Source: Fusobacteriia bacterium UBA1095 (GTDB taxonomy: Bacteria; Fusobacteriota; Fusobacteriia; Bac17; UBA816). Taken from it: a stretch of 51,012 nucleotides of DNA. A model generated the notes under the pieces. It made no database searches. It was not told the origin of the DNA and worked only from the letters and a program-made list of their open reading frames with translations. The stretch lies in the NCBI GenBank assembly GCA_002313635.1, contig DCBY01000005.1, positions 1 to 51,012 of the forward strand, given 5' to 3'. Below, piece after piece: positions 1-37,493 of the stretch; within the stretch, counting starts at the first letter, position 1; every line of letters begins with the position of its first letter. A program made the position numbers and the translations under genes.

Positions 1-2658
1 TGCTGCAAGCTGTAGAGGAATTTTACCATCTTCATTCCTATCCATTAATTTATTTTTCATAAACTTCAAGGCTATTTCCAAAGATTTCAATTTCCCACCT
101 TTACACAAATTGTGTAAGCTTATCCTTTTACTTAAGCTCTCTTTACTTACTTTCTTTTCCATATGCTCTAACTTTTCCATATACTCTAAACATTTGATAG
201 ATGAGAAATTAAGTGCTATCATAAAAAGGTTTTCCAAGTTAGTTACTTTATCGGCCACATGTTTCAATCCTTCAACAAAATCAAATTTGATAATATGATC
301 TATTACTCTTTTACCTGTGGTACCTACATATATATCTTCATTAACCTCTCTTAGACATTTTATCAATGAGGCTTCCTTTACTTCTTTGGTAGCTTTGTCA
401 GATGAGAGGACAAATTCTAAGTCACCGCCTTCTTCATCATATCCACATATATACTTGATAACATCATAGATTGTCTCTTTGTTAACTTCATTTTTAACTA
501 TTAAGTCAAAAATAGATTCACTATCATCATACTTTGTTAAGTCAAGCTCTTCTTTGCTAAGTATTTCTAGAGAAACTAAATGCTTTATGAAGTATGGATT
601 AGATTTTAAAATAGCAATGTGTAATGGCCTATCTCCATTAGAATCTGCTTGTACTAATAGATTTTTATTAAAACTTTTTAGGCTAATTGATTTGTTTAAA
701 AATTCTGAAGTAGCTATATCTTCATCTGTACACTCTGCCAAGTAATGAAATACATTTTTGTTATTTTCATCAACGGATGTTAGGTCTATGATGTTTTTGT
801 AGGCATACATATATTTGTCTTGTTCTAAATCTAGGCTATCATCTTTCCTATTAGCTAATCTAGCTTCTTGCTTCCTTTGCCTCAATATAGGTAAAGAAGG
901 GCCGTAAATCCTCTCTTGAGCATTTTGTACATCTTTTTCTCTAAGAAGGTCTAATAGCATTTGAGAGGAAACATAATCTTTTAGTTCTTTCTCATGGTTT
1001 AGTATATTTATTTTTTTAAGGGTACTTTGTTTATTTTCACCAAAAATTTCTTTTATTTTTTGAAAAAACATTTCTTTAACAGAAGATGACTGGTTATAAA
1101 AAGGGGAAGCCCCTTTGGAAATTAGAATTCTTACATTATTCATCAAACCTTCTCTCAAAGCTAGCCTTAAAGGAGATATACCCTCTGCATTTTCTGAATT
1201 ATCTACAAAGGAAGAAAAATTACTATTTTGTAGAAGAGATTTAATAACAGAACAATCTCTATTCATAGCTGCAAAGTGAAGTGAGGTGTAATTTCGTTTA
1301 TTAACATTTACTATTTTAGAAGAAATTTCTGAAAGAAAGTTTGCACTCAAATATTGAGAGGACTCAAGATAATCTAAATCAAATTCATCAAAGTAGTTAA
1401 GCGAAAAAAGCTTCTCCATAATGGGCACATTATAAAAGTGATTAGTTTTCAGGTGTTGTTTGATAAAATTGACAAGACCGTATTCCAATGATTTTATTAC
1501 AAGCAAATTGACAATTTCATTATTATTATTTTCTAGTGCCAATTTCAAAGATGTAATGCCTCTTTTACTTTTTATATCAATTTGTGCTTCATTGTCAATA
1601 AGGATTTGGCACACTTCTTTATGTCCATTTGCTGCTGCAACCATAAGTACTGTAGCTCCACTTTGATTTTTAGCATTAACATCAGCCCCATTGTCAATAA
1701 GCAACTGGCACACTTCTTTATGTCCATTTCTTGCTGCAATCATAAGTGCTGTCCACCCATCTTGCTTTTTAGCATTAACTTCAGCACCTTTGTCAATAAG
1801 TAACTGGCACACTTCTTTATGTTCATTTTCTGCTGCAACCATAAGTGCTGTCCACCCGTCTTCATCTACTGTATTAACATCAGCCCCATTGTCAATAAGG
1901 AATTGGCACACTTCTTTATGTCCATTTCGTGCTGCAATCATAAGTGCTGTACACTCACCATCTAATTTCTGATTAACATCTATTCCCAGACCTAATGAAT
2001 ATTTTATTGCTTCCTTCTTCCCTAACTTTGATACAGTAAAAAACAAATATTCTTTTATGTCTTTAATATCTTTTTCTAATATTTTTATTATATCTTTTAT
2101 AAAATCTATTTCACAATATATACATAATATCTCCGTCGTGTTTATTCTTCTTTGTTTAACATATCCCCTATCATCTTTATAATTATCCAAGAACCATCCC
2201 TTACTTTTCTTTTTTATTTCTTCTATTTTTCCACTCACGATCAATTTTTCTAATTCTGTTGCTTCTATTCTCTTTAAAAATTCTCTCTCCAATTCTCCAT
2301 CTTTATTTTCCTTCATCCTGGACAACAGTCTGTACTCTAGATTTTCTTGAGGTATTAGGTTGAATAGATCTATATTCCTCTTATTAACAATTCTTTCATA
2401 AACTTTGTAAGGATATTCACCTTTTTTGATCAATAACTGAACCGCTTCTATATTTTCAACTTCTATTGCTTCTTCTATTGGTAGTTTTCCATTTTCATCC
2501 TTATGAAAAGCAGTATACTTATTAACTTTTTCTAATATATCTTTGCTATTCTCATCATCTGGATTCCGTATCGCTTTACTTATATTTTCTCTTCTACATT
2601 TTTCTTTTATCTTTAAATTGTTAAATGTACAGCTAAACATAAATATCAAAAATAACAT
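1..2658 (-). CDS. Giant ankyrin-repeat protein paralog 1 (ANK1), 3'-truncated by the window edge, with lipobox-like N-terminus
   Basis: Manual translation: ATG at 2658 after an AAGGGG SD with an in-frame TAA upstream; open for 886 codons to position 1. Starts MLFLIFMFSCTFNNLKIKEKCRRENISKAIRNPDD. Has ANK repeats TALMIAARNGHKEVCQFLIDNGADVN and is co-linear with 3230..9484 (YTSLHFAAM, SSQMLLDLLR, RIYGPS, GKIPLQLAA). Absent from the ORF track because it has no stop in the window. Confidence 0.93.
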   Translation of the reverse strand, partial: MLFLIFMFSCTFNNLKIKEKCRRENISKAIRNPDDENSKDILEKVNKYTAFHKDENGKLPIEEAIEVENIEAVQLLIKKGEYPYKVYERIVNKRNIDLFNLIPQENLEYRLLSRMKENKDGELEREFLKRIEATELEKLIVSGKIEEIKKKSKGWFLDNYKDDRGYVKQRRINTTEILCIYCEIDFIKDIIKILEKDIKDIKEYLFFTVSKLGKKEAIKYSLGLGIDVNQKLDGECTALMIAARNGHKEVCQFLIDNGADVNTVDEDGWTALMVAAENEHKEVCQLLIDKGAEVNAKKQDGWTALMIAARNGHKEVCQLLIDNGADVNAKNQSGATVLMVAAANGHKEVCQILIDNEAQIDIKSKRGITSLKLALENNNNEIVNLLVIKSLEYGLVNFIKQHLKTNHFYNVPIMEKLFSLNYFDEFDLDYLESSQYLSANFLSEISSKIVNVNKRNYTSLHFAAMNRDCSVIKSLLQNSNFSSFVDNSENAEGISPLRLALREGLMNNVRILISKGASPFYNQSSSVKEMFFQKIKEIFGENKQSTLKKINILNHEKELKDYVSSQMLLDLLREKDVQNAQERIYGPSLPILRQRKQEARLANRKDDSLDLEQDKYMYAYKNIIDLTSVDENNKNVFHYLAECTDEDIATSEFLNKSISLKSFNKNLLVQADSNGDRPLHIAILKSNPYFIKHLVSLEILSKEELDLTKYDDSESIFDLIVKNEVNKETIYDVIKYICGYDEEGGDLEFVLSSDKATKEVKEASLIKCLREVNEDIYVGTTGKRVIDHIIKFDFVEGLKHVADKVTNLENLFMIALNFSSIKCLEYMEKLEHMEKKVSKESLSKRISLHNLCKGGKLKSLEIALKFMKNKLMDRNEDGKIPLQLAA
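1555..1950 (-). repeat. Four near-identical 99-bp tandem ankyrin-coding repeats in ANK1
   Basis: Repeat starts at 1950, 1851, 1752 and 1653, with a diverged fifth at 1554. Codons CAT AAA GAA GTG TGC and CTT ATT GAC are identical in all four copies. Confidence 0.95.
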
Positions 2659-2986: not shown

Positions 2987-3072
2987 TGGTACCGAGGGTG
3001 GGACTCGAACCCACACGAAGTTGCCTTCATCGGATTTTGAGTCCGACGCGTCTACCATTCCGCCACCACGGC
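2987..3072 (-). tRNA. tRNA-Leu(CAA), class II with long variable arm, encoded CCA
   Basis: GCCGTGGTGGCGGAATGGTAGACGCGTCGGACT-CAA-AATCCGATGAAGGCAACTTCGTGTGGGTTCGAGTCCCACCCTCGGTACCA; D-loop GG, T-loop TTCGA, discriminator A. Confidence 0.97.
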
Positions 3073-3229: not shown

Positions 3230-6200
3230 TTAAGCTGCACTATGACCGTAGTTCTTAAGAGGGTATCTCTCTTTTTTCTTGTACCCTTCAACTCTTGTTG
3301 TCAATTGATCTCTTTTATCTATTATTCCTTTGTATAATTTTTTTAATTCATTTTCTAGCCCTTTATTCCAGGCTATCTCTCCATCTAAAACTTTCTCTGC
3401 TTTTTCTTTTATAAATGTTTTATATCTGCTGTATATATCGTTGTATTCTCCCAACTCTGTTAAAACGTTTTTTAGTTCACTCTCTAGAATTCTGTTGTAT
3501 TCTTTCATATCTTTGTCACTTAGCAGCTTTGCTTTTTGCCCCTCTAGCATTAGTTTTGTTATTGTTAAATTTTCTATCATTCCAAGCTCTTCTCTCACTT
3601 GTGAACGCACTTTGTTTTTCATCCGCTTCCATTTGTTTTCCATACCTTCTTGTAATTCTTTTACTGTCATCTCTTTGAATGATTCTAAACTTTCTACATA
3701 GTATTTCAGCAATTGTACATCCATCGGTATTTTTAGTTGAAGCACCCATTTTCCTTCTCTGTATACTTTATTTATATATATTATCTCTTCGTCACCCTCC
3801 CTTCTCTGTTTTGGTCTAACCATATTTACAAAAATATCTACCACCCAATCTGAACCACCTAATTTTGATATTGGCCCAGATAGCTTTAGAAAGTTTGCCA
3901 GCCTTTCTCGCCACTTGTCTATTGCTAAATCTTTTTTTGTTACAAATTTCACAAAACTCCTTAACAATGCTTCTACAAGATCTCTATCCCTTTTCTTTGC
4001 TCCTAGATATATTAGGTCACTCATAATTTTTTCTGATGAATTACTTCCACATTTCTCCAGTCCCATTAGCAAATTTTTTATTTTGCCACTCTCTATCATT
4101 TTTTCTGTTTTCTTCTTTATTTCTTCACGTAGCTTTTCTGTGTAGCTGTTTGATCTGCCATCTTTGATGTTATCTATTACTTTTATTACTTCTTCTAAAT
4201 ATTCCCCCCCTTTTTTCATCAGTATCTCACTTAGACATGAATTTCCATCTTCATTTTTTTCAAACACTTCTCCTATATCTCTCGTGTTTAGAGCCTTTCT
4301 TAACACGCCTACACTTCCTCCTACATTTACTAGTTCTAATGGCAATAATATTGTTCTACCTTCCACGTCAATTTTGTATCTGCCTATGTTATCTATCAAT
4401 TGTTCTGCTTTATCTATGAAATGTCTTTCATTGGCAGCCTTTTTTATTAATATCTTTAGTGCTTTCATTATATAAGCTGCTCTATTTTCTTTGTGTTTAG
4501 AATTAGAAAGTGCTCTTATTACCATATCTGAGCATTCACCTCCTTTTGTTATTCCTATCTCTAAAACACTTTCTGTTTGACTATCTACGTCTAATACATC
4601 TCCTAAGCTAAGCAAACAGGATAAAGAGTCTAGGTCGCCCTCTTTTATAGCTAGTCTATAGCTATTTATTTTATCAGGGCCTTCAACGTTCAATTCTGCA
4701 CCTATTTCTACTAATTTTCTTATTAACCCTACTTCACTTCTCTCTACCGCTAAGTGAATTGCATATCTTCCACTGCCAGATAAAGCCTTATTCACAGGTT
4801 TGCTTCCTTTTGCTATTATTTCTTGTAAATCCTTTTCATCTTTTATGGCTTTTTCATCTATTTCTCTGTCTTTTCTTCTTTTTTCTTCTCTCTCGTCCAT
4901 CTCTTTTGTATCTATTTTATAATTAGTTAATAATGTTACTAATTCTTCATTACCTATTTTTCTTGCTATGCCTATTGCATTACATTGTTCATAATTACCC
5001 ATACGTAATACCCATTGTTTATCAGCACCATTATCTAGAGCATACTTTATGAGGCTTTCTAAATTTTCTTCTTTACTTCTAGCCACGTATCTATGTAATA
5101 CAGGCTCTTCCTCTTTATTTGTTAATGATAGTAACAATGTTGATGTTATATCTCTTTTTATGGCATTTGTAAGTATTAATCTCACAATCCCTACTGATTT
5201 TGCCAAATGTAGAGGGGTATCTCCTTTATTATTTCTTGTTGTATACTTAACTTTGTTCCCCAAAAGTATCTTAAGTTGCTCAATGTTATCTTTCTCTACA
5301 ACTAAATGTAGAGGAGTGTTTCCATCTCTATCTTTGCAATTTACCATTCCACTTGCTATCAATTCTTTGACAAGCTTATTTTCATTCATCATTAATGACA
5401 TATGTATGCATTCGTCTGCAAAGTCTGCATCATATTCTCTTTTACATAATGCACATAGTAGTGAATATATGGTCCCCAATTTTTTTGCTCTTTCTTCATC
5501 ATTTTTGGGATGTAAATTCATTAAATAGTCTATTGCCCTATTGTTACTCAAGTCCCTTAAATCTAATTGACATCCTAACCTACTAAATAAATCTACTATG
5601 TGAGGACTTAGGCTGAATACTGCCGAGTGCATCAAGCTTTTTCCCAAATTGTCTGCATGCACTTGCATTTTCTTTATTTCACCCTCTTTGAAGTAAATAG
5701 GATTTATCGTGTCTTTTCTAAAGTCATAGCCTAATAATAGGGATACTACATCATCTTTGCCCAATTCTGACGCTACTTGTAGTGGTAGCTTTCCTTTCTC
5801 ATCTATGTCCATTAGTTGGTCTTTTACAAAATCTAATACTATTCTTAAAGAGGGTACTGCTCCAATTTTACATAGGTCATGTAAATCTATGTAATTTTTT
5901 GTTGCACCTTCTTTGGAAGCTTTTTTCAGGTCTGTTTTGCTCTCTTTTGCCTTTTTCTTCCCATTTATTATCTCCTCCTTATCTGCATCATTCAATTTCT
6001 TAATTAAGTACTCCATGCATTTTTGTGATGATGGTAAGTAACTTGCCATTATAAATAGCTTTTTTACATCTTTTACTTTGCCTAAGTTGAATATATAGAA
6101 TAATACTTCCACTAAATCTTCTGTTATTGTGATGTCCATTATGCTATTGCCATTCTCACCTTCATATACACTTTTTCCTGAATTGATTTTATCTATAAGA

Positions 6201-9200
6201 TCTTTTTCACTAGAATTAGAATATTTCAATATGTAATTAATTACAGCTATTTTTGTCTCCTTAGAGATTACTTCCTCCATAATTAGATTGAATATAGTTC
6301 TGTTTCCACATTGAAAATTTAATTCGTCTATTGTGAGTATATTAGAGGAGTTCACGTGCTGTATAAAGTATGGATTGGAGTTCAGAATAGCTACGTGTAT
6401 TGGCCTCATTCCATTGCTATCTTCTTGTATCAATAGCTTTACATCAAAACTGCTTAGACTCATCGCTCTGTTTAGAAACTCACTTGTAGGTATATCCTCT
6501 ATACACTTAGCCAAGTGATGAAATACATTCTTGCCCATATCATCAACAGTAGAAAGAACAATGATATCTTTGTATAGTTCTGAATGCTGCAGATCACTAG
6601 GACCGTATATTCTTTTTTGTGCATTTTCAAGATCTTCACTCCTAAGTAGATCAAGTAGCATTTGTGAAGAAATATAAGTTGTGAGTTCTTTATTACCATC
6701 CAAAATATTTCTGACTCCTCCTAGGAAGGTTTTATATAAAGGAGAAGCACCTTTTGAGAGAAGTATTTTGGCATTATCAACAAGGTCATGCTTTAGTGCT
6801 AATCTCAATGCAGTAATTTTATTCCTGTTTTCATTATTATCAATAAAGAGTGCAAATTTATCATTTTCAACTATAGATTTAAGAATACTAGAGTCTTCAA
6901 TCATAGATGCAAAATGAAGGGAAGTGTACCCTTTATTATTCTTATTTGAAATTTCAAAAAAGTTATTAGAAAGAAAGTCTAAACTTAGGCACTGAGAAGC
7001 TTTATAATAATCCAAGTGAAGTGTGTCGAAGTTATCGGCTAATATTATGGAAGGAATCAAATCTTCTTTATAGGGGTCCGCCAATGCTTGCTTAACAAAT
7101 TTTTTGGAGTGTTTGTCAATAGTTGCTCCATGCTTAATAAAAAGTTCAATTTTTTTATTATCGTTATGGTCATAATCTCTATGGTCATAATCTCTATATG
7201 TCGTATTTACTGCATATGACAAAGCTGTCCACCCTTTGTTATCTACTGAATTAACTTCTGCTCCATTCTCTAATAAGAATTTACAAGTCTCTACATACCC
7301 ATTTTCCATTGCTATAATTAATGCTGTTTGCTTTTCATTATTTAAAGCATCCACTTCTGCTCCCTTCTTAAGCAACAATCTGCATGCCTCTTCATGTCCA
7401 CCTTTTGCAGCATACATCAGGGCTGTCCAACCATCTTCATCTGATATGTTAACCTTTGCTTCCTTTTCTAATAACAATTTATATATATTTTCACGATCGG
7501 TTGTATTTATTTCTGCCTCTTTTAAAGCTATTTCCCCCATATTCTCTCTCTTCATTTTTCTCCATGACTGATCAAACAACATTAGGTCTAAAGAGTTTTG
7601 AGTATAGTTTAATGCATGTATTAATGCCGTCTTTCCAGTTCTATCTTTTATATCAATGTCTGCACCATTATTTATTAATAGCTTACATATTTGTTTTCGC
7701 CCATAATTTACTGCGTACATTAATGCAGTCTGACCACTTTCACTAATTACTGCATTAACTTTTGCACCATTTACTAATAGTAGTTTACATAAGTAATATT
7801 TACCTTGTTCAGTTGCTATCATTAATGCTGTCTTATCAAATGCAAAAATTGACTCCTCTCTATCATAAACTGTTTTATTTACATTTGCCCCTTTTGATAA
7901 TAATAGTTTACAGACATCTTCATTCCCATATTTTACCGCACACGTTAGTGCCGCCCATTTCTCGTCATATTCTTCTGATTCAATATTTGCACCGTTCTCT
8001 AATAGTAGTTCACATACATCCTTGAATCCATTTATTGCAGTGAGTATCAATGCTGTCCATCCTTTATTATCTACTGAATTAACTTCTGCTCCATTCTCTA
8101 ACAACAATTTACACACATCTTCATGACCATTTTCTGCTGCATATATTAATGCTGTTCTACCACTTTTATCCTTTGTATTGGCCTTACCTCCATTCTCTAA
8201 CAACAATTTACACACATCTTCATGACCATTTTCTGCTGCGTGTATTAATACTGTTTTTTCTAAAGGTTCTTCCCCTATCAAAAATGAATAAGTTACTATT
8301 CCATCTGACATTTCTTCTATGGAATTAGGATCTAAGGTATCATTTTTTTTTAGCAGTAGTTCACAAACCTCTTTATGACCTCTTGCAGCAGCCATCGTAA
8401 ATGCTATTTTGTCTGTGGCTTTCTCATACTCTGTTGCTTCATGAACTCCTTCTCTCTCCTTCAAAAATAGATCACATACCTCCTTGAATCCATTTCTTGC
8501 TGCTAATATTAATGGAGTCCAACCTAGATAGTTTTGAATATCTATTTTTGCTCCTTTTGCTAAAAGTAGCTTACATACCTTTTCTTGTCCATTTTTTGCT
8601 GCAAACATTAGTGCTGTATGCTGTTTGGTATTATCTTTAGCATTTACGTCTGCGCCCTTACTTAATAACAAAGTACATATATCTTCATGACCATTTTCTG
8701 CTGCACACATTAGCCCTGTTCTATCAGTTCCCCACCTGCACTTTACGGATGTCTCTACTCCATTTGGTAGTAATGCTTGACATGTCTGTAGTAGGTACTG
8801 TACTAACTTTTTGTCTCCTATTGCTGATGCTGTAACTAGAACATACTCTGCTATATCCTTTTTCCTTGATTTTGCCATTTTCATTATTTTTTCTATTACT
8901 GACTCTTCTCCGTAAATACATAAAATTTCTGCTGTAGATATTTCTCTGTCACGTAATTCTGCCTTCTCTTTGTAATGTTCTTCTATCCACTTTTCATCCT
9001 GTTTCTCTATTTCAGCAATATTTCCTTCCACTATTAATCTTTCTAGCTCTGTTGCACTTATCCTTTTCATGAATTCATTTTCTAAATTTTTATATTTACA
9101 TTCTTTTATTTTTAATAGTAATTTATAATCAAGATCACCTAACGATATTAGATTGAACATTTCTACATTTTGTGTTTCTAATATTTTTTTGTATATCTGT

Positions 9201-26916: not shown

Positions 26917-27839
26917 AAATTCCCCAAATAAATTTTTATTCTATTTATAATTTTATCTGAACTTTCACTTATTGAAAACCCTGCCGCTTTTTTATGACCA
27001 CCACCACCAAATATAGAAGCCAACTTATTAACATCTACATTGTTCGATCTTAAACTACCTTTAAATTCACTTCTATGCTCTTTTAAAAGTAGAAATATGT
27101 CATATCCTTCTAACGTTTTCATTAATTCTATTATCCCTTCACAGTCTTCATATTTAGCATCAAGCGTCTCAAGTACATCCTTATTCATTACAAAATAGCA
27201 GAATTTTAATCTTTCAATTAATATGAAGTTTTGTAAAACATATCCCATTAATCTTAAATTTTTGATCTTTCTTCTGCCAAATAGGTTTTTTGATACTAGT
27301 TCATGATCTACGCCATAAAGCTTTAATTTTGCTAACTTGTTAAGCGTTGTACTATTTACTTTACCCCATGATAAATTGCCAGTGTCGCTCATAAATCCGT
27401 AATATAGACACAAAGCTATTTCAGAGTTAATTTTGAAATTATTATTTTCAAATATATCAAATAAGATTTCAGCAGTTGAGCATGCCTCAGTATTTATAAA
27501 GTTACTAATTCCAAAATCATTCTTACTTACATGGTGATCAATATTGATTAAATCTTTGTAAACAATTCCTTCTTTTGCTACCCTATCAATGCTTCCACAG
27601 TCAACTGATATTAGGAGATCAACATCATAGCAGTTATCAGCATCTGATATTGTGATTTCATTGACATCGAAGAAATTAAAATAATCTGTCAAAGGCTCAT
27701 TAATGAAAAAATTAACTTCTGTATTGAAATTTAAATTAATTGTTTTCATCAGCGCCAATCCAGATCCTATTGCATCTGGATCTGGATTAATATGGGTAAC
27801 TATACCTATTTTTTTGTAATTACCTAAAATGTCTAACAA
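26913..27839 (-). CDS. nrnA: DHH/DHHA1 phosphoesterase (NrnA-like)
   Basis: THINPDPDAIGS, VDCG, IDHH, SDTG, GGGHKKAAG; TTG start. Confidence 0.92.
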   Translation of the reverse strand: MLDILGNYKKIGIVTHINPDPDAIGSGLALMKTINLNFNTEVNFFINEPLTDYFNFFDVNEITISDADNCYDVDLLISVDCGSIDRVAKEGIVYKDLINIDHHVSKNDFGISNFINTEACSTAEILFDIFENNNFKINSEIALCLYYGFMSDTGNLSWGKVNSTTLNKLAKLKLYGVDHELVSKNLFGRRKIKNLRLMGYVLQNFILIERLKFCYFVMNKDVLETLDAKYEDCEGIIELMKTLEGYDIFLLLKEHRSEFKGSLRSNNVDVNKLASIFGGGGHKKAAGFSISESSDKIINRIKIYLGNL

Positions 27840-28477
27840 TCTATTTTACCCCTTAGTATTTTGCCTGTTAAATCAACTACAATACCGGTAGATATAGCCG
27901 ATACTATAGAAGCAATAACATTTTCAACTGGGAATACAAGGCTAGAACTTAGGACTATTAGTATTTTATTCAAAGATACTGCAGAGCCTATGCTTAGCTT
28001 ACCATACCAGTGGTTCATTATCTTAGCTAAGATGTCCACTCCTCCACTGGAACCAGACATTAAATTAGCCCCACATATTCCGATTCCGCTTGTTATACCA
28101 GCAAGAATTGCAGCTGTCCATATAGACATTTCTGGAATATCTATAGGCAACAGTAGAAATAGGCTTGAAATGAGAATAGTAAAAAATGGTAATACCAGTG
28201 TACTATATAGCGATTTTAGAATAAATTCCATACCAAATATTTTGTACGAAAGAAGTAATAAAGGGCAATTGATAATAACATATATGATAGGTACTAAGAT
28301 ACCCTCATCACCTGATAAATTCATCAGGTGATAGAGTACCATAGATATGCTCATAAACCCACCAGAAACAACCTTGTTAGGGATTAAAAAGATAGCATGT
28401 GAAATCCCAACTAATAATATGAATAGATTAAATAATAAAAAAGATTTAAAGCTCTTTTTTACTATCTTCGATTTCAT
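27833..28477 (-). CDS. YitT-family membrane protein (copy 3)
   Basis: SGG..IS, NCPLL, GSSGGVDILAK; multi-TM. Confidence 0.85.
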   Translation of the reverse strand: MKSKIVKKSFKSFLLFNLFILLVGISHAIFLIPNKVVSGGFMSISMVLYHLMNLSGDEGILVPIIYVIINCPLLLLSYKIFGMEFILKSLYSTLVLPFFTILISSLFLLLPIDIPEMSIWTAAILAGITSGIGICGANLMSGSSGGVDILAKIMNHWYGKLSIGSAVSLNKILIVLSSSLVFPVENVIASIVSAISTGIVVDLTGKILRGKIDC

Positions 28478-29118
28478 TACTTTTTGCCCACCAACAACTT
28501 AAGAGTAAGATCTAAAGAGTATGCAACAATAATTACTACAGCTATGCCATATAGGGTACCAGATGCTCCCAATATAAATAGAGAAGCAGCTAATATAATT
28601 AAGTTAAATAGTCCTATTGAAAGACCTAAACTTATTCTAGGTACATACTTATTTAGTACTTGACCTAATATGTCAGTTCCACCTGTATTTGCTCCAGAAT
28701 ATATTGTTAAAGCTACTCCCACTCCCATAACTACTCCTCCAAGTAATATAGCTGTGTACAAGCTAGGTACATAATTAGCTACCACTGAGGCGAATAAGAA
28801 ATTTATAACCATTATGTATATTGGATAAGCGAAACTAGCATATACAACTTTTAGTAGATACTCTAAACCGAAGACGTAATATGCAGCTACGAGTAGAGGT
28901 ATGTTGTACATAATAGCTATAGAGCTTATTAAGTTGTTTGCATCACCACACAGGCCTAAAGCATTGTACGTTAGTAAAGCAACACTATATAGTCCTCCAG
29001 GTGGTATGTTAACTTTAGAAAAGAAGAATACAGCAGGAATTGCTGCAATTATGCATCCTAAGTTAAGTATTAAAAAATTCTTCATCATACTGTTATTATT
29101 CATTTTGTTTTTTTCCAT
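28477..29118 (-). CDS. YitT-family membrane protein (copy 2)
   Basis: PGGLYSVA, NIPLL, ANTGGTDILGQ; multi-TM. Confidence 0.85.
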   Translation of the reverse strand: MEKNKMNNNSMMKNFLILNLGCIIAAIPAVFFFSKVNIPPGGLYSVALLTYNALGLCGDANNLISSIAIMYNIPLLVAAYYVFGLEYLLKVVYASFAYPIYIMVINFLFASVVANYVPSLYTAILLGGVVMGVGVALTIYSGANTGGTDILGQVLNKYVPRISLGLSIGLFNLIILAASLFILGASGTLYGIAVVIIVAYSLDLTLKLLVGKK

Positions 29119-29142
29119 AAAAAACCTCCTTAGTTAAACAGT

Positions 29143-29787
29143 TTACTCCATGTCTACTGCTCTTTTATTGAAGCCGTACCATAAAGTTACATCTATAAAC
29201 CAACCCGTTAAGATTATTGATATAACAGAAGCAATAGCTCTGTCTATACCAAACATTATTGCTGAGACAAGAGTTAAAGCTAAATTAGTCAATGTCACAC
29301 CAAGTCCCAAACTTATTTTTGGGTAGTATCTATTTATTATCTTTGCTACAGTGTCTGCACCCCCAGTACTTCCACCTAGACCCATTATTATTCCTATACC
29401 TACACCTGGAATTAAGCTTCCTAATATAGTTGCTACAAATATGTTGCTTTCAACTATGCTGTAGTTTATATATTTCAAAAAAGCCCCCATTAGTAGCATG
29501 TACAGAGGTAGAGTAGCTGTTGCATAGAATGTCTTATTGAAATACTCTTTGCTAAAGTAAAGAAAAGAATATAAAAACAGAGGAGCATTCAGCAAGAAGG
29601 CTATTATAGGCACATATATACTGCCATCATCCTTTAGCCCAAATAGGTGAGTTAACACTATGGCAATACCATAAAGCCCACCTGATGTAATTGTTGAAGG
29701 TATCAGATAAAAAATATCTGCTATTGGCATTAAGGCCAAAGTTAAGTTAATTATTAAAAAATTTAAAAGCTTCTTTTTTCTATCCAT
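29143..29787 (-). CDS. YitT-family membrane protein (copy 1)
   Basis: SGGLYGIA, NAPLF, GSTGGADTVAK; multi-TM. Confidence 0.85.
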   Translation of the reverse strand: MDRKKKLLNFLIINLTLALMPIADIFYLIPSTITSGGLYGIAIVLTHLFGLKDDGSIYVPIIAFLLNAPLFLYSFLYFSKEYFNKTFYATATLPLYMLLMGAFLKYINYSIVESNIFVATILGSLIPGVGIGIIMGLGGSTGGADTVAKIINRYYPKISLGLGVTLTNLALTLVSAIMFGIDRAIASVISIILTGWFIDVTLWYGFNKRAVDME

Positions 29788-30781: not shown

Positions 30782-32953
30782 TCAGTATATAGGCACAAAT
30801 GCAATTATATTCTGAGGTAGCAAAGTTATATTTTGGTATGCTATTTTAAAGGATAGCTTATCTATTTGTGAATTATTATTTATAAGTACAGGTATTTCAC
30901 TACCCTTTGCATTAATTAATTTTTCCTTTAGCTCAACTTTCTCCTCATTGCTCAATTTAGAAACATCAATTAAAATTCCAAAATTGTAACTTTTACTAAA
31001 CAGCTTTTGACTCTCTTTAATTAGGGAGAAATATTTTTTAACTAATATTTTCTCTTCTGCTGTTAATTTTAGTCTGGTTTCAATGTCTTTTATACCCAAA
31101 AATGGTCCCTTTTCTCGCTCTCTAATTATCTGTTCTGCTAGTCCTTCTACCATGACAGATTTAAGCCCTTTAACAAGAAGGTTATTTTTTACAGAGTAAC
31201 CTTTGTCTGACCAATTTATGTCAGGCTCTAGCATTTTACTTTCAAATGAAGTTACTAAGTTGAACTCTTTTTTGAAATTGGCTTTAAAGTATGCCATATA
31301 ATAAGTGAGATAGGCATATGCTATCGCATGTGACTTTGGGAATGAATAATCTTTGAATTTCATTATTAAATTTAAGTCAGACTTGTCTATCGGTATCTTT
31401 TCTAAGTCATCATTCCTTCCCTTTCTTAATGCTCTGATAATCATTTCTGAATCTTCAATATTAATTCCCTTTTTAGTTAAGAGTTCAATTAGTTGTTCTT
31501 GATATACTATAGAGTTTTTTGAACATATATCTTCAATGTTTTGAAGAGCTGCTGGTCTATTGATAGCTAAAACTCTTGCAAGATCTTCTATGCTATTAGG
31601 TTTTATATGTTTTATTATATCTCTTGCTGTAATTGATTCTAACTGAAATATGTTCTGTGTATCTAAAGAGTTTATAATTTTGTAAGCTTTACTGTTATTT
31701 AATTCCAGTTCAGCAAGATTAGTATTTGTTATCTCTAAAAGCATCTTTAGTAAAGTTAATGTTTTCAAGGGAAGTATATCAATTTTTATTCCTTTTAGCT
31801 CCTCTATCTCTTCTAAATCTAAATCAATAATTCCATCATTTACTGTAGCAATCTTAGTTATATTATTTGAAATTATTATTCCCACAGGGTGTTTTATTTT
31901 ATTGCATATTAAATTAGATATTTTTGGGGAGAGTTCTTCAATTGATTTAATATCTTTTACAACTCTGCTCAGGGCTATTTGAGCTGACTTTAAAGTGAAT
32001 TTGGAATAAGCTGATATCTCCCAAGCGTTATATTTCTTTTTTATATTTTCTATCAATTTGCCTCTTTTATTATGTTCTACATCTATATCAATGTCTGGTA
32101 AGCTAGCTCTCTTTCTATTCAAAAATCTTTCGAACATCAAATTATACTTCAGCGGATTAAATGCTGTTATTCCCAACGAATATGCTACATAACTTGATGT
32201 TGCTGATCCCCTACCTGGACCTACCATAATGTCTAAGCTTTTAGCTAAATTTACGATATCAGAGACAGCCAAGAAGTATGAGCATAATTTCTTGTCATTT
32301 ATTACCTTTAACTCTCTATTTATATCTTTTTCATTGTCTGCTGATAGTAATTTTTGTTCTAAAATACTCTCATCATTTTGTATGCTGTAATTTTCTATCT
32401 CAGGAAAGGAGATGTTTACCATAGATACTATTTTTTCCATATTCTCTATAGCTTTCTTAGATACGTTCTCTTGAGTTAGATGATAATCATTTTTGTCCTT
32501 ACATATTTTCCCTTTGATGGCTGAAGTGTAGGCTAAATATGTCTTTTTATCCTCTTTGTTCAAGTATTTAATATAAGGAGTAAAGACCTCTTTTTCATGT
32601 TTTCCTTCTACAGATGAGTGATAAAATACTTGTTCTCCCTTAATTATTTCATCATTCATTATTATCTTAATTATCTCTTCATCGTTTACTACATTATCAA
32701 GATTGTTATTTATTATCTCAGAATATTTATTGAAGTTAGTAGGTATCAAAAGCATTAGTGTGTTGCCTAACTGTTTCTCAAAAACAAATATAGGCTTGAT
32801 ATTTTTCTTTTTAGCTAATTTGTAAAAATTTACAACTCCACTACTGCTATTACCGAAATTGACACCAACTGCCCTTTTACTAATTGATGTTATTTCATCT
32901 AAGGTTAGTATACTGTCTAAACTAAAGTCAGATTTGCAATTTAGGAAAATCAT
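30782..32953 (-). CDS. dnaE: DNA polymerase III alpha subunit, strongly shortened (723 aa)
   Basis: VGPGRGSA, FERFLN, LPDIDID, KIDIL, FQLES, YQEQ, FPKSHAIAY, PDIN HhH region; degenerate PHP. Confidence 0.92.
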   Translation of the reverse strand: MIFLNCKSDFSLDSILTLDEITSISKRAVGVNFGNSSSGVVNFYKLAKKKNIKPIFVFEKQLGNTLMLLIPTNFNKYSEIINNNLDNVVNDEEIIKIIMNDEIIKGEQVFYHSSVEGKHEKEVFTPYIKYLNKEDKKTYLAYTSAIKGKICKDKNDYHLTQENVSKKAIENMEKIVSMVNISFPEIENYSIQNDESILEQKLLSADNEKDINRELKVINDKKLCSYFLAVSDIVNLAKSLDIMVGPGRGSATSSYVAYSLGITAFNPLKYNLMFERFLNRKRASLPDIDIDVEHNKRGKLIENIKKKYNAWEISAYSKFTLKSAQIALSRVVKDIKSIEELSPKISNLICNKIKHPVGIIISNNITKIATVNDGIIDLDLEEIEELKGIKIDILPLKTLTLLKMLLEITNTNLAELELNNSKAYKIINSLDTQNIFQLESITARDIIKHIKPNSIEDLARVLAINRPAALQNIEDICSKNSIVYQEQLIELLTKKGINIEDSEMIIRALRKGRNDDLEKIPIDKSDLNLIMKFKDYSFPKSHAIAYAYLTYYMAYFKANFKKEFNLVTSFESKMLEPDINWSDKGYSVKNNLLVKGLKSVMVEGLAEQIIREREKGPFLGIKDIETRLKLTAEEKILVKKYFSLIKESQKLFSKSYNFGILIDVSKLSNEEKVELKEKLINAKGSEIPVLINNNSQIDKLSFKIAYQNITLLPQNIIAFVPIY

Positions 32954-36144: not shown

Positions 36145-37017
36145 TTAAACTCTCTTTTTTCTGATTATATCATAATCACTCTTAGTCTTAACGTACGATT
36201 CACAACAAAGTTTAGCTAATCTACTCACTGTCTGTATGAAATTTTGTCTCTTTTTAGGAGATATAACTTTTTGAGCATCTAGCACATTAAAGGCATGAGA
36301 TGCTTTCAATACCATGTCATATGCTGGAAACACAAGATCATCTTCTAGACATTTTTTGGCCTCTTCTACGTATATGTTGAAAAGGTTCAAATAATTATCT
36401 GGATTAGCTACCTCAAAAGAGTATTTAGAGTATTCGAATTCTCTTCTTCCAAATACTTCCTTATATTTTTTATTGCCATCCCAATCTAGCTCAAGTATGT
36501 TGTCCTTATTTTGAACAGCAAGAGCTAACCTCTCCACACCGATTGCTATCTCTATCGGAGTATGAATTAGGTTTATGTTACCAACTTGATTGAAATAAGT
36601 GAATTGAGTTACTTCTCTACCATTTATTCTAACTTCTGAGCCTAGTCCCCATGCACCTAAAGTCGGCTGTTCCCAATTATCTTCGATAAATCTAACATCA
36701 TTTTTCTCTAAATCTATTCCTATATGCTCCAAGCTCTTTAAATAGATTTCTTCTATATTTGAGGGTGATGGTTTCAAAAATACTTGAAATTGATGGTGTT
36801 GATACAGCCTATTAGGGTTTATTCCATATCTGCCATCTTGTGGTCTCCTACACTGCTCAATATAAGCTATTTTTTCTAAACTGTCACCTAATGATCTTAA
36901 AAAAGTATTGGGACTGGAAGTAGCAGCCCCTTTTTCAACATCATAAGAATACTCTATTGTGACACCCTGATCAAGCCAAAAATTTTCAAGAGCTTTTAGC
37001 ATACTCTTTATGTTCAT
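36145..37017 (-). CDS. glyQ: Glycine-tRNA ligase alpha subunit
   Basis: RRPQDGRYG, NPNRLYQHHQFQV, EDNWEQPTLGAWGLG, EVTQFTYF, LKASHAFNVLDA. Confidence 0.99.
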   Translation of the reverse strand: MNIKSMLKALENFWLDQGVTIEYSYDVEKGAATSSPNTFLRSLGDSLEKIAYIEQCRRPQDGRYGINPNRLYQHHQFQVFLKPSPSNIEEIYLKSLEHIGIDLEKNDVRFIEDNWEQPTLGAWGLGSEVRINGREVTQFTYFNQVGNINLIHTPIEIAIGVERLALAVQNKDNILELDWDGNKKYKEVFGRREFEYSKYSFEVANPDNYLNLFNIYVEEAKKCLEDDLVFPAYDMVLKASHAFNVLDAQKVISPKKRQNFIQTVSRLAKLCCESYVKTKSDYDIIRKKRV

Positions 37018-37493
37018 TTATCCTCGCTGATATAACTGTCAATTAATAACAAAATTATTGCTATGTTTATAAAGGCATCTGCCCCGTTGAATATAAATGT
37101 CCATATCCCATTAAAGTCAATGAAATCTATTACAAAATTTCTGAAAAGCCTATCGTAACTATTACCTAGTGCTCCTCCAAAAATTAATCCATAAGCGACA
37201 AGTTTTAACATGCTAAATTCGTTTATTCTTTTGTAAATATAGTAAAGTATGTAAAATGTCACACCTACACCTAATGCACTGACTAACCAAAATACAAACT
37301 GATTGTCTAGAAATAGTCCAAATACTATACCAGTATTTCTGACGTAGGTAATTCTTAAGAAATTCCCTATAACTTCTATAGATTGATGTGGAATCATATA
37401 CAGGTCAACCAATATTTTTGAAATTTGGTCAGCTGCAAATGAAAATAGTGAAATGAATGATAATATTAAATATCTTCTAGTACTTTTCTGCAT
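37014..37493 (-). CDS. lspA: Lipoprotein signal peptidase II
   Basis: DQISK, NTGIVFG, GGALGNSYDR, VIDF, FNGAD. Confidence 0.96.
   Translation of the reverse strand: MQKSTRRYLILSFISLFSFAADQISKILVDLYMIPHQSIEVIGNFLRITYVRNTGIVFGLFLDNQFVFWLVSALGVGVTFYILYYIYKRINEFSMLKLVAYGLIFGGALGNSYDRLFRNFVIDFIDFNGIWTFIFNGADAFINIAIILLLIDSYISEDK

Follow-up and report, generated by a model that had tools for sequence, protein, structure and literature searches.

A narrowly distributed family of giant ankyrin-repeat proteins with a constant scaffold and a variable surface in an uncultured marine bacterium

Gene A is one member of a narrowly distributed and strongly expanded family of giant ankyrin (ANK)-repeat proteins, and its repeat units combine a nearly constant scaffold with widely differing loops. 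This pattern is real but ordinary for ANK repeats, and it is sharpened by homogenization of the scaffold. We put the probability at roughly 60% that scaffold homogenization through recombination between units, together with relaxed constraint on the surface, explains the contrast better than adaptive hypervariation does. The arrays would then show in a clean natural setting how homogenization of the scaffold and freedom of the surface give a DARPin-like architecture with no special mechanism, and they document an expanded family of giant ANK proteins in an abundant, uncultured marine bacterium.

Gene A and its ankyrin array

The window, i.e., the whole stretch of 51,012 nucleotides that was analyzed, contains two ANK paralogs, here called genes A and B (Table 1). 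Gene A covers 886 amino acids in the window and at least 1214 in public contigs (L001, L090, and L091); a further extension was sought in the public contigs, and every contig ends inside the C-terminal part of the gene. Its Pfam matches are Ank_2, Ank, and Ank_4, and the two genes give ANK families only. Four ANK units of 99 nt were found on the minus strand at 1950–1555 in the phase of the original prediction, where each unit consists of 26 scaffold codons followed by 7 loop codons, and both the four loop sequences and the series R/E/R/A at the end of helix 1 (AARNG, AAENE, AARNG, and AAANG) read as predicted. An array with period 99 was also reported by Tandem Repeats Finder at 1590–1954 (3.7 copies, 84% matches, score 513). 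The 33-residue period and the motif pattern G-x-T-x-L ... G-A-D-V-N are present, and the units align without gaps. Scores lie far above the Pfam cutoffs of the Ank clan (PF00023, PF12796), with E = 1.5e-64 and 215 bits for Ank_2 (cutoff 27.3) and 168.9 bits for Ank (cutoff 21.1). The top PDB sequence matches are ankyrin-1 (E = 9e-119) and many DARPins at E-values of 1e-40 to 1e-90, and it is a safe prediction from the sequence that the array adopts the ANK solenoid fold of helix-turn-helix and beta-hairpin. The degenerate fifth unit is only 36–41/78 identical in its scaffold to the other units of gene A. Plus-strand open reading frames over the array (e.g., 1691–1972) were rejected as antisense by-products of the repeat.

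Table 1. Coordinates of the features discussed in the text (positions in the window).
Feature	Position	Strand	Description
Gene A, giant ANK-repeat protein, partial CDS	1..2658	minus	ATG at 2658; runs off the left end of the window
Gene A N-terminus, MLFLIFMFSC	2629..2658	minus	short hydrophobic stretch ending in Cys
Family-specific N-terminal domain	1969..2658	minus	~230 aa; weak ANK-like helices; 47–78% identity, 7 paralogs
Reader-phase unit 1	1950-1852	minus	frame of gene A
Reader-phase unit 2	1851-1753	minus	frame of gene A
Reader-phase unit 3	1752-1654	minus	frame of gene A
Reader-phase unit 4	1653-1555	minus	frame of gene A
ANK unit 1, DARPin phase	1867..1965	minus	aa 232-264, LDGECTALMIAARNGHKEVCQFLIDNGADVNTV; HMM match 59 bits
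ANK unit 2, DARPin phase	1768..1866	minus	aa 265-297, DEDGWTALMVAAENEHKEVCQLLIDKGAEVNAK; HMM
ANK unit 3, DARPin phase	1669..1767	minus	aa 298-330, KQDGWTALMIAARNGHKEVCQLLIDNGADVNAK; HMM
ANK unit 4, DARPin phase	1570..1668	minus	aa 331-363, NQSGATVLMVAAANGHKEVCQILIDNEAQIDIK; HMM
ANK unit 5	1471..1569	minus	aa 364-396, SKRGITSLKLALENNNNEIVNLLVIKSLEYGLV; degenerate, cap-like
Scaffold block F1 (repeat 1, codons 1-26)	1873..1950	minus	75/78 identical to F3
Scaffold block F3 (repeat 3, codons 1-26)	1675..1752	minus	partner of F1
Loop l1	1852..1872	minus	TVDEDGW
Loop l2	1753..1773	minus	AKKQDGW
Loop l3	1654..1674	minus	AKNQSGA
Loop l4	1555..1575	minus	IKSKRGI
Gene A C-terminal part	1..1470	minus	scattered degenerate ANK-like units, e.g., YTSLHFAAMN, GKIPLQLAAENERNDVVNFLL
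tRNA-Leu(CAA)	2987..3072	minus	between genes A and B
Gene B, ANK paralog	3230..9484	minus	2084 aa (2078 aa from ATG at 9466)
lspA	37014-37493		within the window

Outside the array, the N-terminal alignment of seven family members has invariant C10, T11, and F12, and the family carries a lipobox-like motif of the form F-S-C, L-S-C, or L-G-C. The N-terminus is considered a candidate lipoprotein signal, and export and lipidation of the proteins are putative; gene A has only nine residues before the Cys, none of them K or R, and some paralogs possess an upstream in-frame MCQELCSRRGK extension. A gene for signal peptidase II, lspA, lies elsewhere in the window. In its C-terminal part, gene A shows homology to the corresponding parts of gene B and of two metagenome genes, L088 and L089 (family D4). 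Gene B has the N-terminus and domain order of gene A and harbors at least 16 ANK units, which are just 60–69% identical to those of gene A at the nucleotide level, and this degree of identity excludes a recent conversion between the two genes.

Near-identical units may also be produced when short-read assemblies of paralogous repeats are collapsed or chimeric. The NCBI assemblies L003 and L004 indeed break approximately 35–45 nt before the array, the Logan contigs are fragmented over it, and the contig ends inside the C-terminal part point in the same direction. However, JGI and ENA assemblies of three samples (L001, L002, and L091), made by two pipelines, give the same 2658 nt with no mismatch to the window over gene A, Logan contigs of four further runs hold exact pieces of the array (spans 1–1717 and 1734–2027), and the reading frame and the 33-codon periodicity are intact. 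An assembly artifact, which had been named beforehand as a reason to give up the prediction, is scarcely credible in view of these identical samples and exact pieces.

Scaffold and loop divergence within gene A

Units 1 and 3 differ at 3 of 78 scaffold nucleotides and at 13 of 21 loop nucleotides (Fisher P = 1.4e-8), which reproduces exactly the predicted identities of 75/78 and 8/21. All six unit pairs behave in the same direction (scaffold 64–75/78 vs. loop 8–14/21 nt), and 19–26 of the 33 residues (58–79%) are identical between units. Where units 1 and 3 encode the same amino acid at degenerate scaffold codons, 22 of 24 codons are identical compared with 11 expected from the codon usage of the window itself (simulation P < 1e-5, with a similar result in 6/6 pairs), and the fraction of same codons is 0.89 within gene A vs. 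0.55–0.75 between gene A and other genes. The tract shared by blocks F1 and F3 is sharply bounded, with identities of 22/45 upstream, 75/78 inside, and 8/21 in the next loop, so that both flanks correspond to background. A scaffold that became related more recently than the adjoining loops, through homogenization by gene conversion or unequal recombination, fits these data, and this part of the original prediction is borne out. Apart from the F1/F3 pair, the scaffolds of gene A agree mutually at 64–70/78, vs. 64–69/78 with the best paralog scaffolds; because the two ranges barely differ, the case for homogenization in gene A draws mainly on F1/F3 and on the excess of shared synonymous codons.

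The divergence of the gene A loops is about four times that of the scaffold at synonymous and nonsynonymous sites alike. Values of pN/pS are nearly equal (~0.9; scaffold 0.123/0.139, loop 0.491/0.539), and the difference at third codon positions amounts to 15% for the scaffold vs. 50% for the loop (P = 1.3e-5). A model in which the loops are approximately 8–9 times older under a single omega (M2, rho = 9) reaches lnL -1107.07, and a model of equal age with a loop omega of 10 (M1) is poorer at lnL -1110.00; when both age and omega are left free (M3), the loop omega is 0.85 and rho is 8. Loops that are older rather than faster-evolving fit gene A better, where the lead of M2 by ~3 lnL units comes from four units giving six non-independent pairs with seven loop codons apiece, and where synonymous counts in multi-hit loop codons hinge on path averaging. 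This is a property of mosaic pairs and not a general one: as a family-wide rule, older loops were rejected on the ground that at synonymous sites the glycine of the loop (position 4) has diverged no more than scaffold glycines and that an equal-age model is best for nearest pairs.

Scaffolds and loops of gene A also have discordant nearest relatives. The scaffolds lead to other units within gene A, whereas loops l1 and l2 lead to other paralogs: in L085, AVDEDGW loops match l1 best (19/21 and 18/21 nt, vs. 8–13/21 to the other loops of gene A), and in L086, l2 is matched best by AQNQDGW and ASMQDGW (19/21 and 18/21 nt). Loops l3 and l4 have no close relative, with best matches of 15/21 and 12/21 nt. 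In several genes, near-identical scaffolds are flanked on one or both sides by loops that are no more similar than background, and the PHI test for recombination between units is significant in four of five arrays (P = 0.002–0.03). Some pairs of paralog units reach 94–97% nucleotide identity, and units 383 and 649 of L085 are 97% identical and have the DEDGW turn in common. The idea that loops are reusable cassettes turned out to be partly true, DEDGW being the sole loop that recurs in several genes.

Such duplicates that include their loops raise the question of whether recent tandem duplication and neutral drift, with no conversion between units, could create the contrast through site-specific constraint alone, and a surface omega of ~1 (see below) fits the relaxed constraint that this explanation implies. 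However, the scaffold pS of 0.12 predicts only ~2–3 loop differences, compared with the 13/21 that are seen beside 3/78 in the scaffold, and the background similarity of both F1/F3 flanks, the closeness of l1 and l2 to loops of other genes, and the significant PHI tests in four arrays all speak against it. Duplication and drift would require an approximately 8-fold raised local mutation rate at the loop codons, synonymous sites included, and we consider them very unlikely as a sufficient explanation.

Surface variability and selection across the family

The positions that were randomized in the DARPins of Binz et al. 2003, which we take to be 2, 3, 5, 13, 14, and 33, are reportedly surface positions that contact targets in natural ANK complexes. 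When the positions of 84 family units are ranked by entropy, the order is 10, 5, 13, 1, 3, 2, 33, and 14, and thus all six DARPin positions fall within the eight most variable, in agreement with the prediction that variability coincides with the canonical binding surface. These six positions have a mean entropy of 2.76 bits, compared with 1.14 bits at the remaining ones. The six-position surface signature is unique in 80 of the 84 units, which display 70 distinct beta-turns; position 14 is mostly Asn (65%), positions 1 and 10 vary as well, and residue usage at the variable sites is skewed to D, K, E, Q, R, and W.

Omega was estimated from profile grids of likelihood, in codon comparisons that cover paralogous units and genes. 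Family-wide, the scaffold omega is 0.2–0.3. At the DARPin positions it is 1.0–1.2 (vs. 0.2–0.25 in the scaffold) for pairs not chosen by similarity, where omega = 1 is not rejected, and 0.8 for the nearest pairs of whole units, which reject omega ≥ 1.5 by 6 lnL units. Pairs picked on scaffold identity give a surface omega of ~2, and those picked on helix 2 reject omega = 1 by 8.3 lnL units; we regard this value as an ascertainment effect because the pairs were picked on scaffold identity, and beyond the segment used for picking them their relatedness at synonymous sites falls off as well. Surface positions in the beta-turn and helix 1 are thus under essentially no constraint and evolve at a rate close to neutral. 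Surface omega exceeds 1 in the single arrays of L088 and L089 (2.5 each) and gene A (3.0), and episodic positive selection may have acted at surface positions in some arrays.

The original prediction had interpreted the contrast as adaptive diversification, in which positive selection pushes the contact residues of a binder to diverge, for instance during an arms race with targets in a host or prey, and purifying selection and homogenization preserve a constant scaffold. The 80 unique signatures and 70 beta-turns, the coincidence of the most variable positions with the ANK binding surface, and a surface omega ~5 times that of the scaffold (~2 in helix-2-chosen pairs and 2.5–3 in three arrays) are all in favor of it, and look-alike ANK arrays of fungal NLR proteins have been reported to be under positive selection (PMC4986451). 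Yet omega stays at 1.0–1.2 when pairs are chosen without regard to similarity and at 0.8 for whole-unit nearest pairs, the high values arise in pairs ascertained on scaffold identity, and the loop excess of gene A is equally synonymous; the comparison of substitutions across repeats and paralogs, which had been suggested as a check, did not bear out the adaptive claim. A concentration of variants at loop codons across samples, which had been suggested as well, did not appear: no loop-codon or repeat-number polymorphism of gene A was found among the three samples, whose short-read contigs could hide rare alleles, and gene B variants differ by 1–2 of 2078 amino acids in changes that are not clustered. 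Variants and "joints" in Logan contigs are not assignable to the gene A locus, since paralogous contigs pile up on the array, and unit number varies only between paralogs. Taken with the evidence on both sides, adaptive diversification is a possible but rather unlikely explanation.

Under the preferred explanation of scaffold homogenization with relaxed surface constraint, scaffold residues would be held by structural constraint (omega about 0.2–0.3), and recombination between units, i.e., gene conversion and unequal crossing-over, would repeatedly homogenize 78-nt scaffold blocks. The exchanges would occur within a gene and probably between paralogs too, with units 1 and 3 as the clearest case in gene A. 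Surface positions (omega about 1) would not be carried along by these exchanges and would for that reason keep their older divergence. Each unit would as a result bear a surface signature of its own on the shared scaffold, as suits a solenoid that binds proteins, and the surface diversity would have been built up over the history of the family and not by ongoing hypervariation. We infer both the detailed mechanism of recombination and binding as the function from these patterns.

Known repeat systems and the setting of the family

DARPins share with the gene A array the 33-residue unit and the degenerate cap-like units that flank the regular ones. They are synthetic, with a framework taken from the consensus of natural repeats (for the derivation of the ANK consensus see PMC8683736). 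The resemblance is expected because their design drew on natural repeats and, reportedly, on the contact positions in natural complexes; the predicted DARPin-like character holds for the variability at six positions on a fixed framework, and the likeness is in large part a restatement of the DARPin design.

Among natural proteins, the gene A family can be set, as a bacterial equivalent, beside the conserved repeats of fungal NLR proteins and the ANK genes of Wolbachia. In fungal NLR proteins, ANK, TPR, or WD repeats form arrays that are highly conserved internally (Dyrka et al., 2014, PMC4986451; also Paoletti et al., 2007, to the extent that it is cited in PMC4986451). The two have in common a near-constant scaffold with variable positions on the concave binding surface, units that undergo shuffling inside and among family members (concerted evolution), and widely varying unit numbers. 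Recombination and shuffling of units are evident here from the PHI tests (4/5 arrays) and the discordant neighbors of loops and scaffolds. However, the fungal arrays are defined by at least 85% unit identity across a minimum of 100 amino acids and by repeat-number polymorphism between alleles, whereas the units of gene A are 58–79% identical and the gene is the same in three samples. Fungal NLR arrays are accompanied by NACHT or NB-ARC, in contrast to genes A and B with Pfam ANK matches alone, and the fungal positive selection differs from the omega of about 1 found here, in a bacterial host and behind a lipobox-like N-terminus.

The ANK gene families of Wolbachia are likewise bacterial and lineage-expanded, and their genes differ in repeat number as a result of intragenic recombination and the exchange of ANK clusters (Siozios et al., 2013, PMC3563639). 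Sequence kinship with them does not extend past the ANK fold. The present proteins are much larger (~2000 aa), possess a conserved family-specific N-terminal domain with a Cys-containing N-terminus, and have no prophage association that was seen; they come from an uncultured bacterium of the sea, and related MAG proteins carry the NCBI label "Fusobacteria/Fusobacteriota bacterium". The zinc-finger arrays of PRDM9 also undergo concerted evolution, with homogenized tandem units that differ from each other in a few contact codons, and these codons are under strong positive selection and show extreme allelic polymorphism. Neither the selection nor the polymorphism was seen in the gene A family. 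If its surface diversity is selected, the family would be a bacterial analog of repeat-based recognition repertoires.

Among 1.84 billion proteins, no more than 15 representatives match the N-terminal domain at E ≤ 1e-10, and three scans of one-genome-per-species GTDB contigs, run with gene A and with the alignment of the N-terminal domain, gave no relative of either. Five paralog loci in metagenomes contain ~10 to 27 recognizable units each, compared with four good units in gene A, and the depth of Logan contigs over 1600–2570 is ~10–30 times in excess, which points to many paralogs. It is quite unlikely, though conceivable, that perhaps 15–20 giant paralogs in a small genome form a combinatorial repertoire of surface-anchored binders, with shuffled units and selected surface diversity. 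Among prokaryotes, such a repertoire would parallel fungal NLR arrays or the variable lymphocyte receptors of lampreys and would serve in contacts with eukaryotes, either hosts or prey. An expansion of ANK families is usually a sign of a bacterium that lives in association with eukaryotic cells or within them, and therefore the family hints at the lifestyle of the organism.

A diversity-generating retroelement acting on the array was rejected, as Pfam scans of the window's open reading frames of at least 150 aa gave no reverse-transcriptase family and the array sequence is invariant across samples. An alternative genetic code was ruled out by stop codon usage (TAA 10, TGA 10, TAG 7) and by the intact long open reading frames. 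Matches to Lon at 46–49% come from Gammaproteobacteria, Bacilli, and others, in a list shaped by a pattern pre-filter and uninformative on phylogeny. The GC content is 31%, i.e., low-GC, and on this ground the Comchoanobacterales, a choanoflagellate-associated lineage of 39–42% GC, were dropped as a candidate. The locus of this uncultured marine organism recurs in dozens of assemblies, many of which are Tara Oceans metagenomes.

The ankyrin array of gene A and its paralogs

Gene A, the giant ankyrin-repeat (ANK) gene at the left end of the window, begins with an ATG at 2658 on the minus strand and is open past the window's left end, with 886 residues inside the window. In public contigs it has at least 1214 residues and reaches the contig end each time: four contigs of other assemblies (L001, L002, L090, and L091) stop within its C-terminal part at 1175–1214 aa, and two (L003 and L004) stop 35–45 nt short of the ANK array. 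Its Pfam matches are ANK families only (Ank_2, E = 1.5e-64), and the best solved-structure matches are ankyrin-1 and many DARPins, which are designed ANK binder proteins. Tandem Repeats Finder reports a period-99 array of 3.7 copies, and a degenerate fifth unit directly follows the four units of the table.

Features of the window on contig DCBY01000005.1
Feature	Position	Strand	Remark
ANK unit 1	1950-1852	-	phase of the original prediction
ANK unit 2	1851-1753	-	phase of the original prediction
ANK unit 3	1752-1654	-	phase of the original prediction
ANK unit 4	1653-1555	-	phase of the original prediction
tRNA-Leu	between gene A and gene B
Gene B	3230-9484	-	2084-aa ORF; N-terminus and domain order as in gene A
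tmRNA	10803-11139	-	one-piece; tag peptide ANNFALAVA
YitT-family paralogs	27833-29787	-	three in tandem; 5-TM membrane proteins, 213-214 aa each
DnaE-like ORF	30782-32953	-	723 aa only

All figures of the original prediction were reproduced, namely 75/78 matches between the scaffolds of units 1 and 3 and 8/21 between their seven-codon loops, the four loop peptides (including TVDEDGW of l1 and AKKQDGW of l2), and a helix 1 end that reads R/E/R/A across the units. The difference between scaffold and loop (3/78 against 13/21 sites; Fisher P = 1.4e-8) has the same direction in 6/6 unit pairs, and the identical tract of units 1 and 3 has abrupt edges, with 22/45 matches upstream of the 75/78 and 8/21 in the following loop. 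Where degenerate codons encode the same amino acid in both scaffolds, 22 of the 24 are identical while 11 are predicted from the codon usage of the window's housekeeping genes; amino-acid conservation combined with an AT-rich composition thus does not fully account for the identity. Near-identical units might also be produced by the assembler, and two NCBI assemblies break just ahead of the array, as is expected of repeats. However, assemblies of three samples by two pipelines have 0 mismatches to the window across the whole of gene A, and exact pieces of the array are present in Logan contigs of further sequencing runs, which makes an artefact very unlikely.

Besides gene B, a metagenome scan gave five further family loci (L085–L089), whose N-terminal domains share 63–67% identity with that of gene A in tblastn (42% in L089) and whose central arrays comprise some 10 to 27 recognisable units, compared with the four good ones of gene A. 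The common architecture consists of a short hydrophobic N-terminus closed by an invariant Cys, a family-specific domain of ~230 aa, a regular ANK array, and a long C-terminal part with dispersed degenerate ANK units. The lipobox-like N-terminus of gene A is a candidate lipoprotein signal of only 9 residues with no positive charge; lspA lies in the window. The family is narrowly distributed, since a set of 1.84 billion proteins yields only 15 strong representatives of the N-terminal domain, which has no relatives among GTDB species representatives, and Logan contig word depth is raised ~10–30 fold over 1600–2570 in four runs. This assembler word depth suggests ~15–20 paralogs per genome. One of the four runs is a ~0.76 Mb data set resembling a single genome.

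The nearest relative of gene A's N-terminal domain (L086 2655–4952, 67% identity) has a stop codon straight after a ~16-unit array, giving 766 aa without the long C-terminal part, and another member begins ~1 kb downstream; the family therefore includes tandem and truncated members. One ANK loop of gene B repeats the motif RDYDH, encoded by 2.2 perfect tandem copies of a 15-nt sequence (7165–7197, minus strand). Over 967–1246, a ~90% identical contig (28 differences in 280 nt) is found in runs X2, X3, and X4, with an exact contig also in X2 and X4, and a similar near-match covers 1321–1618 in X2 and X4 (27 differences in 298 nt); these near-matches may come from a sister strain or from a paralog of gene A that arose very recently.

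Divergence of scaffolds and loops in gene A

Nei-Gojobori estimates for gene A are pS 0.139 and pN 0.123 in the scaffold, and pS 0.539 and pN 0.491 in the loop. The pN/pS ratio is ~0.9 in both, and the loop is ~4 times more diverged for synonymous and nonsynonymous changes alike; the share of differing third codon positions is 15% for scaffold codons and 50% for loop codons (P = 1.3e-5). With a single omega for scaffold and loop, and loops ~9 times older, the model reaches lnL -1107.07, a better fit than the -1110.00 at equal age and a loop omega of 10, the grid limit; when age ratio and loop omega are both left free, they are estimated at 8 and 0.85. The original prediction held that the framework is homogenised while contact residues diversify adaptively: its first half is supported, and the second is not demonstrated, the loop excess being equally synonymous.

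The nearest nucleotide relatives of l1 and l2 are in other paralogs (19/21), whereas gene A scaffolds have theirs inside gene A, although apart from those of units 1 and 3 (F1, 1873–1950; F3, 1675–1752) they are barely nearer each other than they are to the best scaffolds elsewhere. PHI detects recombination between units in 4/5 larger arrays, and near-identical scaffolds flanked by loops of background similarity recur in several genes. A mosaic history of the gene A array appears the parsimonious reading, resting on four units whose pairs are non-independent. Scaffold blocks would have been swapped or homogenised through homologous recombination, and loops, too diverged or shielded by selection, may have stayed outside the exchange and kept their older divergence. 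Across the whole family, loops are not generally older.

No variants at loop codons were seen in gene A, which does not differ among the three samples, and gene B variants in the 90% cluster differ at 1–2 of 2078 residues without clustering in loops; nothing suggests ongoing hypervariation. Pfam scans of ORFs of at least 150 aa found no reverse transcriptase in the window, and therefore a diversity-generating retroelement is not involved.

Surface positions and selection across the family

Positions 2, 3, 5, 13, 14, and 33 are reportedly those randomised in the DARPin library of Binz et al. 2003. Among 84 ungapped 33-codon units out of seven genes, the most variable positions in DARPin numbering are 10, 5, 13, 1, 3, 2, 33, and 14, so that all six library positions fall within the top eight and the DARPin-like pattern, as a description, holds family-wide. 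Mean entropy is 2.76 bits at the six and 1.14 bits at the others, and the six-position signature is unique in 80/84 units. Variability at surface positions is a generic property of ANK repeats, and the reason why DARPins look as they do. A published account gives the DARPin design as a principle only, without a position list (PMC8683736).

Selection was estimated on unit pairs with a Goldman-Yang codon model having a divergence time per pair and separate omega for scaffold and surface positions. In 37 disjoint adjacent units, paired without similarity choice, omega is 0.25 in the scaffold and 1.2 at the DARPin positions, with omega = 1 not rejected; all 603 within-gene pairs give 0.2 and 1.0. 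Whole-unit nearest pairs give 0.8 (support interval about 0.55–1.15), and single genes range from 0.4 to 3. Omega of about 2 arises only for pairs picked by helix-2 identity, in which synonymous relatedness drops beyond the selected segment too, which marks it as an effect of ascertainment and mosaicism. Overall, surface positions evolve at ~5 times the scaffold rate and roughly neutrally, and positive selection on them, which may still have acted, is not demonstrated.

The closest described phenomenon is the fungal NOD-like receptor repeat arrays (ANK, TPR, and WD) with high internal conservation, in which a conserved scaffold, variable concave-surface positions, and repeat shuffling, as in the gene A locus, are accompanied by reported repeat-number polymorphism and positive selection (PMC4986451). 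Unlike these, the gene A locus stays below the 85% identity criterion, lacks a NOD domain, and showed no allele-level repeat-number polymorphism in three samples. The nearest bacterial analogue is the Wolbachia ANK gene families, alike in recombination of ANK units, which recombine within genes and exchange ANK clusters (PMC3563639). That the family serves in bacteria as a combinatorial repertoire of binders, with selection favouring diversity, seems to us improbable.

Organism and genomic surroundings

The DNA comes from a marine source, and Tara Oceans assemblies supply many of the contigs; GC is ~31%, and related MAG proteins are labelled 'Fusobacteria/Fusobacteriota bacterium' by NCBI. Outside the ANK genes the window holds ordinary housekeeping genes. 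A patatin-like phospholipase gene (9768–10679, minus strand) lies directly upstream of gene B, and one database homologue (P0053) has ANK repeats fused to a patatin domain; proteins of both kinds are typical for bacteria manipulating eukaryotic cells. DNA polymerase III alpha subunits typically have ~1160 aa, and the short ORFs downstream of the DnaE-like ORF look by eye Asp23/Gls24-like and NusB-like rather than dnaE fragments. Gene A and 27/27 long genes of 3230–46266 are on the minus strand, and GC skew is negative throughout 1–46266, consistent with one replichore whose genes strongly favour one strand.
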